The notes below the pieces were generated by a model. It had not been told where the DNA came from. It ran no database searches and saw nothing but the letters and a program-made list of their open reading frames with translations. This document shows, in pieces, positions 26,887 through 54,708 of a stretch of 64,000 nt of DNA; the stretch's first letter is position 1, and the number at the start of each line of letters is the position of its first letter. Position numbers and translations under genes: made by a program. The DNA lies in NCBI GenBank assembly GCA_021776525.1, contig JAJFFT010000004.1, positions 344,499-408,498 on the forward strand, in the 5' to 3' direction. The DNA comes from Robiginitomaculum sp. (GTDB lineage: Bacteria > Pseudomonadota > Alphaproteobacteria > Caulobacterales > Maricaulaceae).

Positions 26887-27247
26887 TACCGGTGTCGGCC
26901 GGTATCCATCTTGAGGCATCAAAATAGGCCCTGGCCTGCGCCGGGGTGACGCCTTTGGTTAGCTTTCACCCTCGTCGCCCTCCGGTTAAACCGAAGGGTG
27001 ACGAACAGAGGGACTCAATATCAATACAACGGCAGCTTTTAACCAGGCTCTTTCCTCTCCCCCTAAAGGGAAAATGGGAGAGGAATAAGGTGAGGGGTTT
27101 GGGCTTTTGCAAGCGTATTGATCTGCCGATTCACTATCCCCTCATCCCAACCTTCTCCCCAAGGGAGAAGGGGAAAACTCGTCCTCATATAGCGAGGCTT
27201 GCTGTCGCGTCCTTCGAGGGTGCTACGCACCACCTCAGGATGAGGAG
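26887..27247. repeat. field of at least five REP/RIME-like GC-rich hairpins in a 440-nt non-coding spacer
   Basis: The hairpins are ATACCGG/CCGGTAT (26887-26906), TCACCCT/AGGGTGA with an inner CGGTT/AACCG (26967-27002), CCTCTCCC/GGGAGAGG (27055-27084), CCTTCTCCC/GGGAGAAGG (27152-27172) and TCCTCAT/ATGAGGA (27183-27247). The spurious translations (WIPADTGMT, PLIPTFSPREKG, HLRMRS) resemble well-known intergenic repeat artefacts. Confidence 0.5.
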
Positions 27248-27253
27248 CACAAG

Positions 27254-27297
27254 AAAACCCGTGCTCAAGTAGCGGGCGCTAGCACCGCGATAGCACA
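27254..27297 (-). terminator. probable terminator downstream of rnpB
   Basis: On the minus strand there is a compound hairpin (GUGCU...AGCAC with an inner UAGCG/CGCUA) followed by GGGUUUU. Confidence 0.45.
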
Positions 27298-33390: not shown

Positions 33391-33416
33391 TCCCATAAAT
33401 TCCCATGATATCCCAT
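33391..33416. promoter_or_regulatory. three direct TCCCAT repeats at exact 10-bp spacing (candidate MraZ operator in the dcw promoter)
   Basis: TCCCAT occurs at 33391, 33401 and 33411, which reads ATGGGA on the other strand. An inverted ATGGGG lies at 33428-33433. The repeats are 71-96 nt upstream of mraZ. Confidence 0.55.
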
Positions 33417-33486
33417 ATGTTAACAACATGGGGGTTGGACGAGGGCAGGGACGCTGTTCTGACCCATAACTGGGAGCCGGGCGCGC

Positions 33487-52492: not shown

Positions 52493-53395
52493 GTGAGCAC
52501 GGTATTTCCATTTACAACGCTGCCTCACAACCAGCATACACTGGCAGCGCCCCTCGTTTGTGCCGGTATCGGGCTGCACAGCGGCGCAAATGCTAGTTTA
52601 AGCGTTCACCCGGCCCCCGCAAACAGCGGCTTGGTGATCATCCGCACGGATGTGGCGGATGAAAGTGGGCGCCTTGAATTGCGGGCCGATGCGGTTGTTC
52701 AAACCATACGCGGTACCAATCTTGGCAATGCTGCGGGAACCATGATTGCCACAACCGAACATGTCCTGGCGGCGCTTTACGCCTGTGGTGTTGATAATGC
52801 GGTGCTGAATATCGATGGCCCTGAAATGCCGGCCATGGATGGCAGCGCGCTTGCCTTTGCCGAAGCGATCAGCAAATCCGGCCTGAAAGAGCAACGCGCA
52901 CAGCGCCATTATATCGAAGTGCTCAAACCACTGCAGATCAGCGATGGCACAAGACAGGTCAGCCTTGCGCCCCGGCAAAACTTAATGATCAGCGCCCGCA
53001 TTGATTATCCGGCTACATTGATCGGCGTGCAGAATTTTCAATGCGAAATTACTGCAGCAAACTTTGTCGCCGATATCGCCCCGGCCAGAACTTTCGTTTT
53101 AGAACAAGAAGTTGCGGACTTGCGTGATGCAGGTCTTGCCCGCGGCGGATCCCACGACAACTGTCTTGTTATTGATGGCATGGCTTTGCAAAATAAAGAT
53201 GGCTTGCGTTTCAAGGACGAATTTGCGCGCCATAAAGTTCTTGATATTCTGGGCGATATTGCTCTGGCCGGCGCGCCAATACTGGGGCATTTTACCTCTG
53301 ATTGTGCCGGGCATGCCCTCAATAATGCGTTGATCCGGGCGTTGATGGCCGACGCGTCTGCATGGCGTAAGACGACGCTGCCTCTGGCCAAATGA
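52493..53395 (+). CDS. lpxC: UDP-3-O-acyl-N-acetylglucosamine deacetylase
   Basis: 300 aa with a GTG start (GIGLHSG, TTEHVLAAL, ARTF, FARHKVLDILGD, GHALN). Confidence 0.95.
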   Translation: MSTVFPFTTLPHNQHTLAAPLVCAGIGLHSGANASLSVHPAPANSGLVIIRTDVADESGRLELRADAVVQTIRGTNLGNAAGTMIATTEHVLAALYACGVDNAVLNIDGPEMPAMDGSALAFAEAISKSGLKEQRAQRHYIEVLKPLQISDGTRQVSLAPRQNLMISARIDYPATLIGVQNFQCEITAANFVADIAPARTFVLEQEVADLRDAGLARGGSHDNCLVIDGMALQNKDGLRFKDEFARHKVLDILGDIALAGAPILGHFTSDCAGHALNNALIRALMADASAWRKTTLPLAK

Positions 53396-53500
53396 AACAA
53401 GTCTAACCGCATAATCTGGGGCGGGCATAAGTCAAATTTATAGTGGGCCATCGCGGCGATAAACCTCGTTATCTGGGACAATTTATCCCCGCTTTTAGCA

Positions 53501-53601
53501 GGGGCAAAAAGGGACTAAAAGCTCCGTTTTAAGGGCAATTAGGGGGTAATAAGGGACACTTTAGGGGCATTTTTGGGAAAATCAGAGGGTCGCTAAGGGA
53601 C
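53501..53601. repeat. array of nine G3-5 tracts phased at about 10.7 bp and separated by A/T-rich spacers
   Basis: G-runs start at 53501, 53511, 53533, 53542, 53553, 53564, 53575, 53587 and 53597. AAGGGAC occurs three times (53509, 53551, 53595), and GGGAC also occurs at 53475. Confidence 0.6.
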
Positions 53602-53856
53602 GCTATTGCCCCTTGAGGCATGATTTGCACAAACTTATCCAACACCCAGGCAAATGGAGTATGATTTCCCACACTGAAAGGTGCTTTGCCGTTGCATCGG
53701 CCCAGAAGGGGGAGATTCAAGGCGGGGCACAGCGAAAAGTTCAACTCTGGCCGCATTCAATCAAGGCAAAAGTGTGATTGTTCCAGCTTGGCGCTTCACC
53801 CCGGCACCGCTTCGGGGTACAGAGTGTTTTCCGGTTCCCAATTGTCAGACTGTATC

Positions 53857-54708
53857 ATGCCAAAAATATTTACTGCGCTAGTCCTTGCTTCATTGGTCTT
53901 CACTGTCGGTTGCGGCAGCAAGGGTAAGAAAAAACTGGCCTATGTCGAACGCCCGGCCGAGAAAATTTATCTTGAGGGTTACGACAAAATGGGACGGCGA
54001 GAATGGCCGCGTGCCGTTTTGCTGTTCGATGAAGTAGAGCGCCAGCATCCGTATTCGGTCTGGGCACGTCGCGCCATGTTGATGGCAGCCTATGCCAATT
54101 ACCAGTCCAATAAATATACCGAAGCGATCAGTGCGGCCCAACGCTTTGTGGCCCTGCACCCCGGTTCGCGCAGTGCGCCCTATGCTTATTACCTGATTGG
54201 TATTTGTCATTTTGAACAAATTTCTGATGTGGGCCGCGACCAGTTGGAAACCCAACAGGCGCTTGATGCCTTGCGTCAGGTGCTTCGCCGCTTTCCCAAC
54301 AGCGAATATGCCCGCGATGCACGGCTGAAAATCGATCTGACCAATGACCAGCTGGCTGGCAAGGATATGGCGGTTGGCCGCTGGTATTTGCGCCGCGGTT
54401 ATCACCTGGCGGCAATCGCCCGTTTCCAGCATGTGATTGATGTCTATGAAACCACCAGCCACACCCCCGAAGCCCTGCACCGTCTGGTCGAGGCTTATGT
54501 GCGACTGGGCGTTTTGGACGAGGCCGTTCAGGTGGCCGCTGTTTTGGGCCACAATTATCCGGGCACGGACTGGTATCAGGATTCGTACCGCCTCTTGGCC
54601 AAAAACGGCGTCACAAACGTGGCCGAAGCCCAAAGCGATGCACAAACTGATGAAGAGCAAAAAAAGAAAGGTTCATTCATCAGCCGCACCTGGAGACGTT
54701 TATTCTAA
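53857..54708 (+). CDS. bamD: outer membrane protein assembly factor BamD
   Basis: 283 aa from MPKIFTALVLASLVFTVGC (lipobox). TPR-like repeats follow (YEGYDKM, YANYQSNKY, YAYYLIGICHF). The track ORF start at 53686 is an upstream extension. Confidence 0.9.
   Translation: MPKIFTALVLASLVFTVGCGSKGKKKLAYVERPAEKIYLEGYDKMGRREWPRAVLLFDEVERQHPYSVWARRAMLMAAYANYQSNKYTEAISAAQRFVALHPGSRSAPYAYYLIGICHFEQISDVGRDQLETQQALDALRQVLRRFPNSEYARDARLKIDLTNDQLAGKDMAVGRWYLRRGYHLAAIARFQHVIDVYETTSHTPEALHRLVEAYVRLGVLDEAVQVAAVLGHNYPGTDWYQDSYRLLAKNGVTNVAEAQSDAQTDEEQKKKGSFISRTWRRLF

Follow-up and report, generated by a model that had tools for sequence, protein, structure and literature searches.

What is a regular array of G-runs, repeated once per helical turn, doing between the two envelope genes lpxC and bamD of Robiginitomaculum sp.? 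In the window analysed here (the whole 64,000-nt stretch of DNA, to which positions refer unless a contig is named), Pfam searches confirmed both genes, and the gap between them, singled out in the preliminary description as a long non-coding spacer, measures 461 nt (53396–53856). Runs of at least three G begin, exactly as had been listed, at 53501, 53511, 53533, 53542, 53553, 53564, 53575, 53587, and 53597, with intervals of 10, 22, 9, 11, 11, 11, 12, and 10 nt, and a further run begins at 53475. The Fourier power of the G-track has its maximum at 10.7 nt, which was reached by none of 2000 dinucleotide-preserving shuffles, so that the proposed periodicity stands above every control, and nine G-runs were attained in 4 of the 2000. 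The array is the densest 110-nt stretch of G-runs within the window, and the heptamer AAGGGAC, reported to recur three times, is found at 53509, 53551, and 53595, each within the array and nowhere else in the window. It is confirmed that the G-tract array is real and far from chance.

The array is not confined to this locus. A first search of the organism's own genome (2.96 Mb in seven contigs; hereafter G000) with the spacer retrieved 14 further matches to its central 135 nt, and BLASTN together with iterated nhmmer searches raised the number to approximately 42 copies of a 132-nt core, spread over all seven contigs; among the 42 nhmmer matches, that of the window scores highest. The array is thus repeated elsewhere in the genome, a point that the preliminary description had proposed to check, and the other 41 copies adjoin unrelated genes. 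A sequence-only covariance model of the core detected at least 14 to at least 28 copies each in seven of nine congeneric genomes, gave no match in G012 and G017, and detected none in 111 genomes from 25 other genera of the family or in 148 genomes from 39 other genera of the order. A 17-nt terminal pattern matched 80 loci in a metagenome collection, none of them with the element; these are chance matches, the pattern being too short for that collection. The array is securely assigned as one copy of a new, genus-restricted, non-coding, MITE-like family.

The element bears no specific relation to lpxC or bamD. In six congeneric loci (L024, L027, L029, L030, L032, and L087) the lpxC–bamD gap is only 82–192 nt and has no element, and because these distant congeners have short gaps without the array, the array is an insertion and not native to the spacer. 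The element or a remnant of it is present between lpxC and bamD in closer relatives (L025, from the genome G013, L019, and L018). The earlier view of the array as a feature proper to this spacer does not hold. At L018, from the NORP55 MAG, the lpxC–bamD interval contains 1.7 kb of sequence that includes an extra ORF, and a truncated element comes after it. We propose that the element would have inserted directly behind the lpxC stop codon in an ancestor of Robiginitomaculum sp. and its near relatives. The conserved region upstream of bamD contains CTTCACCCCGG..CGGGGTACAGAG (~53793–53830), which resembles an alphaproteobacterial −35/−10 promoter, and the conserved stretch GGCAAAAGTGTGATTGTTCCAGCTTGGCGCTTCACCCCGG...CGGGGTACAGAG is probably the bamD promoter and 5′ UTR. 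A promoter scan gave a single promoter-like site, at the bamD start, and none inside the element; a terminator scan of the spacer found none.

Table 1. Features of the lpxC–bamD region (positions in the window).
Feature	Position	Strand	Basis
lpxC	52493..53395	+	ORF list; Pfam LpxC PF03331, E 3.5e-93
Whole element, window copy, ~280 bp	53398..53676	+	Copies aligned with flanks; orthologous L025/G013 copy
Degenerate 5′ terminal module CAAGTCTAACCGCATAATC (consensus CAAATTGCACCATTATAC), then inner box TGGGGCGGGCATAA (consensus GGCGGGGATAA)	53398..53430	+	Aligned to L025 copy and family 5′ consensus
Second, partial 5′ module (TCAAATT..TATAG, then CGCGGCGATAA) and linker	53432..53481	+	Read from sequence
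132-nt conserved core: TTTATCCCCG, linker, nine AGGG boxes, inverted box ATTGCCCCT	53482..53613	+	nhmmer E 1.1e-30; covariance model R1, 96.6 bits
Array of nine tnAGGGnCaa boxes	53500..53602	+	G-run positions and family profile
Inverted box ATTGCCCCT (family consensus ATTGACCCT)	53605..53613	+	Pairs with last direct boxes; 82% of cells paired
3′ terminal module: TTGCACAAACTTATCCAACACC, 12 nt, GTATGAT and tail	53625..53676	+	Pattern scan and 3′ profile
Conserved bamD upstream region, outside the element	53740..53856	+	Present at all Robiginitomaculum loci, with or without element
bamD (yfiO), lipoprotein	53857..54708	+	Pfam YfiO PF13525, E 1.5e-51

The family has a modular layout. From the 5′ terminus CAAATTGCACCATTATAC, approximately 13 variable nucleotides, which often form a hairpin with the next box, lead to the inner box GGCGGGGATAA; after a further ~8 nt follow TTTATCCCCG, the nine boxes, and one inverted box (ATTGACCCT), and the 3′ part consists of CTATCCACGGGATAA (in most copies), a nested hairpin repeat, and then CTTATCCCACACC, 12 nt, and GTATAGT with a tail. 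The basic element is ~280 bp, and nested hairpin repeats near the 3′ end lengthen many copies to 450–500 bp. The window copy (boundaries good to ~10 nt, both ends being degenerate) is without the module CTATCCACGGGATAA and without the nested repeats carried by most other copies; its 5′ end lies 2 nt after the lpxC stop codon TGA (53393–53395), and its 3′ module holds an inverted inner box TTATCC and an outward-facing −10-like hexamer. The second, partial 5′ module may have arisen by local duplication or be left over from an earlier insertion, and the copy at G000 C6:142886 carries a similar extra segment. The 3′ module belongs to the same unit as the core: approximately 20 of 27 genome matches in a scan for the 3′ pattern lie 150–320 nt downstream of a core on the same strand, and 26 of the 27 sites matched by the 3′ profile adjoin a core.

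Within the core, box spacing in the family profile is 10, 21, 11, 10, 11, 11, 12, and 10 nt; the profile and the window copy agree in all nine box positions and share a period of 10.7. The 21-nt gap of the profile represents a decayed tenth box, which is degenerate (AAGCTCC) in the 22-nt interval of the window copy and an intact AGGG box in the G013 copies. Stacking all boxes gave the logo t-n-A(86%)-G(89%)-G(96%)-G(91%)-n-C(67%)-a-a-w. Strand asymmetry is strong, the array being C-poor with a G/C ratio of 2.43. A conserved reading frame is excluded by the 11-nt period and the indels between copies.

The ends of the element are related to each other as terminal inverted repeats, CAAATTGC...GCAATTTG for the family. 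The repeats are imperfect (5′-CAAATTGCMCCAKTATAC ... GTATAWTNNNGGCAATTTG-3′), with an inner box on each side (GGGGATAA / TTATCC). They are clearest in the genome G004, where an alignment of the copies shows that the first 19 nt (CAAATTGCCCGATTATAC) match the reverse complement of the last 19 nt (CAAATTGCCGGTAATATAC), that the inner boxes are also inverted (GGGGATAA / GGATAAG), and that the 5′ boundary is sharp; a repeat finder with a 7-nt exact seed reported none in two of these G004 copies, in which the alignment does show them. In the G000 copies, including that of the window, the terminal repeats are degenerate. At one point between CTATCCACGGGATAA and the 3′ module sit nested hairpin-type repeats from three or more unrelated families (CGTCGTCCTCCGGCTTGACCGGAGG...; GTGTCATCCCGG...CCGGGATGACAC; TCTCCCATGGGGAGAGG...CCTCTCCC), for example at G000 C4:621145, C5:25256, and C4:322984 and at the G004 loci L109–L128, and this point appears to be an insertion hot spot. 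A fourth hairpin repeat (CCATGCTTCGAGG...CCTCAGCATGAGG) comes after the 3′ end of the element.

Several observations bear on how the family moves. Mean pairwise core identity is 61% in G000, 68% in G013 (a good assembly with diverged copies), and 79% in G004, where it reaches 99%, a sign that the G004 copies recently multiplied in a burst or were homogenised. G000 is empty at three sites (C1:316131-316216, C6:151135-151277, and C1:292217-292351) that carry the element in G004 or G013, and the element has been gained or lost between species. Target-site duplications were seen neither at the ends of G004 copies nor in the filled/empty pair formed by L123 and G000 C1, in genomes so divergent (~25%) that duplications of 2–3 bp could escape. 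Neither G000 nor G004 yielded an autonomous partner sharing the ends of the element; loose regular-expression scans for one were uninformative. Profile searches of G000 for solo ends gave one weak match each, the 5′ and 3′ modules otherwise adjoining arrays, and in G004 every end module has an array beside it or sits at a contig end. Self-BLAST of G000 ORFs revealed no multi-copy transposase-like ORF, and among ORFs of at least 90 aa just two paralogous pairs share at least 80% identity. Several families of small non-coding repeats are abundant in G000, although IS-like multi-copy genes are absent from it. The Y1/RAYT transposase (PF01797) is absent from five element-bearing genomes (G000, G002, G013, G015, and G018), and RAYT was rejected as the mobilising partner, since its presence does not track that of the element. 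Like MITEs, the elements are short (~280–500 bp), non-coding, multi-copy, and dispersed, have terminal inverted repeats, and show presence/absence polymorphism and recent amplification; a related autonomous IS with the same ends is the trait of MITEs that was not found. Because neither a target-site duplication nor an IS partner was seen, we call the family MITE-like and not a proven MITE. Its mobility would be by transposition.

Copies also coincide with changes in gene order. Between G013 and G000, 7 of the 16 sites with both flanks mapped are collinear and 9 are synteny breaks (loci L141, L145, L146, and L151–L156), at which the flanks often adjoin different G000 copies. Between G004 and G000, 10 of 13 sites (among loci L110–L128) break synteny, a count to which chimeric MAG joins at near-identical repeats may contribute. 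The swapped flanks are as expected if rearrangements ran through the elements or their nested hairpin repeats. At L119 of G004, an array element stands beside sequence orthologous to G000 C4:371744-374045 (around window position 27246, downstream of rnpB); the G000 locus downstream of rnpB (window 26887–27297), unlike L119, has no array. MAG contigs of G002, G003, and G004 often end in or beside copies (for example G004:C31:212-340, C3:357-486, and C80:123-252; L129, L130, and L133), and since many contigs end at copies, the family causes assembly breaks in the genus.

Comparison of copies at conserved sites separates the boxes from the sequence around them. Five copies, that between lpxC and bamD included, have both flanks conserved between G013 and G000, and they are 60% identical, against 57.5% for non-orthologous pairs. 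Their spacers are 45% identical, approximately chance level for A/T-rich sequence, whereas the AGGG columns are 76% identical, and a comparison with G004 gives the same pattern of boxes kept and spacers diverged. Because the spacers are saturated while the AGGG columns are kept, the phased boxes are under constraint. The boxes and their phase have been maintained while the sequence between them turned over, and we infer that the constraint acts at the DNA level.

Since one box falls in each helical turn and A/T-rich spacers alternate with the boxes, all boxes should lie on the same side of the duplex, and a bend of the segment is predicted. Curvature was calculated with a dinucleotide wedge model (Bolshoy–Trifonov parameters; values approximate), in which the end-to-end/contour ratio of the window copy is 0.754, compared with a genome median of 0.972 and a 0.1 percentile of 0.806, and 81% of the arrays fall under the first percentile of the genome. 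When the ratios are converted as a planar arc, the predicted static bend is approximately 115–145°. Of the interpretations offered in the preliminary description, intrinsically bent DNA is supported by this model, and the conserved tnAGGGnCaa box, together with the 10.7-bp phase, is in keeping with an iteron-like array for a putative DNA-binding protein. We regard it as rather probable that this MITE-like element has as its core a helically phased protein-binding or bending module. In the proposed arrangement, nine to ten direct tnAGGGnCaa boxes, 10–12 bp apart (mean 10.7) and closed by one inverted box, would form a nucleoprotein or architectural module, working either through cooperative binding of a sequence-specific protein to one face or by its intrinsic bend without a protein. 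In both cases, folding of the short element would bring its two ends together, by analogy the role of the IHF site in other small mobile repeats. This DNA-level reading is preferred because a specific 6-bp box, strict one-turn phasing, and predicted curvature occur together. Once-per-turn boxes bound cooperatively on one face are known from MraZ boxes, PhoB/OmpR-type 11-bp repeats, and the 11-bp iterons of ParR–parC; unlike such par, rep, or regulon operators, the 42 dispersed sites do not lie beside par, rep, or regulon genes. An MraZ operator (TGGGN in 10-bp repeats) was rejected as the identity of the array, whose boxes carry A (86%) and seldom T (7%) before GGG and whose copies are not at dcw promoters. 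An MraZ-like operator does occur elsewhere in the window, upstream of the dcw cluster, as three ATGGGA at 10-bp spacing (33391–33434, minus strand), similar to the array boxes in style though not in sequence.

Bending at the DNA level alone leaves one set of facts unexplained, namely the position of the copies relative to genes. In G000 the upstream ORF is co-oriented with the element in 30 of 42 copies (p = 0.008), a count based on a crude longest-ORF gene call, and of the 30 copies whose 5′ module can be recognised, 19 start between −20 and +27 nt from the stop codon of the upstream ORF; that stop codon is in some cases provided by the terminus itself, in a TAA variant. The same trend is seen in G004 (15/20) and G013 (12/20), whose copies are not independent. 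Of the 42 copies, 24 are followed by a convergent gene. A replication-strand bias, which IS200/IS605-like or Chi-like behaviour would produce, was not found in G000 (20/42), and both of these candidates were rejected. The polarity and the proximity to stop codons suggest either a constraint linked to transcription or RNA, or an insertion mechanism that is directed.

The first of these possibilities would make the element a 3′-UTR element acting in RNA, where read-through from the upstream gene transcribes the G-rich strand and the nine single-stranded AGGG motifs bind an RNA-binding protein, as a sponge or stability element, or block 3′ exonucleases. It would account for the ~70% of copies that are co-oriented with the upstream gene and abut its stop codon with their 5′ end; moreover, without a replication-strand bias the asymmetry follows transcription, and in an array that is C-poor and predicted to be largely unstructured the AGGG motifs would be exposed. 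Yet a known or structured RNA, an option that had also been raised for the array, found no support. Rfam cmscan of the whole spacer, with E up to 10, returned a single chance lncRNA match and nothing relevant, and the plus-strand fold (z = −1.8) is only slightly better than shuffles. No proposed helix shows covariation: a hairpin between the last boxes and the inverted box was rejected, because its covariation is no greater than that of shuffles even though 82% of cells are paired, and a mini-hairpin GGGGC/GCCTC within the array scores below shuffles. The folding of the 5′ region varies from copy to copy, and the hairpin preceding the array was rejected as an intrinsic terminator common to the family, being followed by a U-tract in G000 copies but by A-runs in the young G004 subfamily. 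A sponge RNA of the CsrB/RsmZ type was likewise discarded, with no match to an Rfam model, a motif of AGGG plus a variable base, and no promoter or terminator detected by scan to frame the array. Furthermore, 30% of the copies, some of them among the best conserved, are oppositely oriented, and for an RNA the agreement of the 10.7-nt mean period with the DNA helical repeat would be a coincidence. We therefore consider a role in the 3′ UTR unlikely.

Transcription of the other strand offers a further explanation. Rho sites show regularly spaced C residues ~12 nt apart, and the minus strand of the array carries CCCU runs every 11–12 nt in a G-poor antisense RNA that is predicted to be unstructured (z = +0.47) and in which, from the G/C ratio of the array, C is well above G. 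The element might then be an antisense insulator, whose CCCU runs serve as a Rho loading (rut) site terminating transcripts that enter from downstream before these extend antisense into the upstream gene, as would suit the convergent downstream gene in 24 of 42 copies. Rho, however, needs YC dinucleotides only, which leaves the conserved A before and C after the G-run unexplained, and nine fixed boxes exceed the need of six subunits; we judge this explanation quite improbable.

Curved DNA stimulates some promoters from upstream, and the element could in principle be a mobile promoter, the promoter-like end of its 3′ module being stimulated by the predicted curvature of the array 20–250 bp upstream. 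The 3′ module has TTATCC, 19 nt, and TATAAT/TATAGT facing outward, the −10-like GTATAGT stands at a fixed 12 nt from CTTATCCCACACC, the same outward arrangement recurs at the 5′ end, and the BrickBuilt MITE shows bidirectional promoter activity (PMC4596501). Against this, the module offers only a poor −35 equivalent, 19 nt is long for a spacer, most copies have a convergent downstream gene, bamD retains its own conserved promoter, and no promoter was detected inside the element by the scan, so that a promoter function seems doubtful at best.

The suggestion that the array is prone to form G-quadruplexes, in DNA or RNA, and thereby blocks replication or transcription or initiates recombination, fares worse and is very unlikely to be correct. 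Nine runs of three to five G on one strand, a median G4Hunter score of 1.56 for the best 25-nt window, the fit of 25 of 33 copies to G3N1-12, and the coincidence of the elements with synteny breakpoints could be cited for it; but the canonical motif (four runs of at least three G with loops of 1–7 nt) is present in only 1 of 33 copies, the mean G4Hunter score of the array is 0.82, the A/T loops are 6–9 nt, and the conserved A(−1) and C(+4) and the strict phase would be superfluous. A locus-specific operator or iteron regulating lpxC or bamD, with its position between two envelope genes as sole support, is scarcely credible given the 41 other copies beside unrelated genes, the congeners with the same gene pair, a short spacer, and no array, and the separate conserved promoter region of bamD.

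A phased protein-binding or bending core in a MITE-like element, as preferred above, has no exact counterpart among the systems with which we compared it. The nearest described system is BrickBuilt of Porphyromonas gingivalis, a MITE with an internal minisatellite (PMC4596501). Both are small, strictly intergenic, species- or genus-restricted families of ~20–40 copies with short inverted-repeat and promoter-like ends and an internal short tandem array. BrickBuilt, however, consists of contiguous 23-nt units without spacers, described as a minisatellite (PMC4596501), whereas the present array has nine to ten AGGG boxes at fixed profile positions with variable A/T spacers and one-turn phase, and the present element is polar relative to the stop codon of the upstream gene. 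The Correia/NEMIS, ERIC, and RU-type repeats resemble the element in having terminal inverted repeats and a central DNA-bending feature and in being non-coding and intergenic; they contain a single protein-induced bend (IHF) site, have target-site duplications, and in several cases have IS relatives (PMC2229807, PMC3184786, PMC10969869), whereas here the predicted bend would be intrinsic or arise from about ten phased boxes, and neither target-site duplication nor IS partner was found. Nested small repeats, location at gene 3′ ends, and rearrangement hot spots are shared with BIME/REP (REPIN) mosaics and with the pneumococcal BOX/RUP/SPRITE repeats, small repeats of which types insert into one another (PMC10969869). 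Unlike REPs, which are 20–40-nt palindromes spread by RAYT, the array consists of non-palindromic, strand-asymmetric direct repeats; a REP/REPIN–RAYT system was rejected, there being no palindromic unit and no PF01797 in the five element-bearing genomes named above. The Caulobacter CIR is likewise a long, strictly intergenic repeat family of Caulobacterales-type alphaproteobacteria, but it is defined by its link to GANTC (CcrM) methylation sites, and identity with it was rejected, as GANTC occurs in just 1 of 33 cores.

Small interspersed repeats are common, and to our knowledge nearly all known bacterial families are palindromic. The present family is set apart by a strand-asymmetric core with one-turn spacing, in which boxes have been kept while spacers mutated to saturation, so that the array itself is under selection; by its fixed polarity at gene stop codons; and by its spread or homogenisation in genomes essentially without insertion sequences, where it coincides with many synteny breaks. 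In practice, the family should be masked when intergenic regions of Robiginitomaculum are read. A further step, to which we attach a low probability, is that the array is a loading platform for a putative sequence-specific protein, possibly a ring or filament former engaging one box per turn, and that the family has been domesticated as a gene-end module, marking the 3′ boundaries of transcription units and serving as a preferred rearrangement breakpoint; if true, it would represent a new class of bacterial genome-architecture element, beyond a decaying MITE. If a protein reads the boxes, the family would be a tractable mobile element that carries its own architectural DNA, and would provide a handle on chromosome reshuffling in IS-poor marine alphaproteobacteria.
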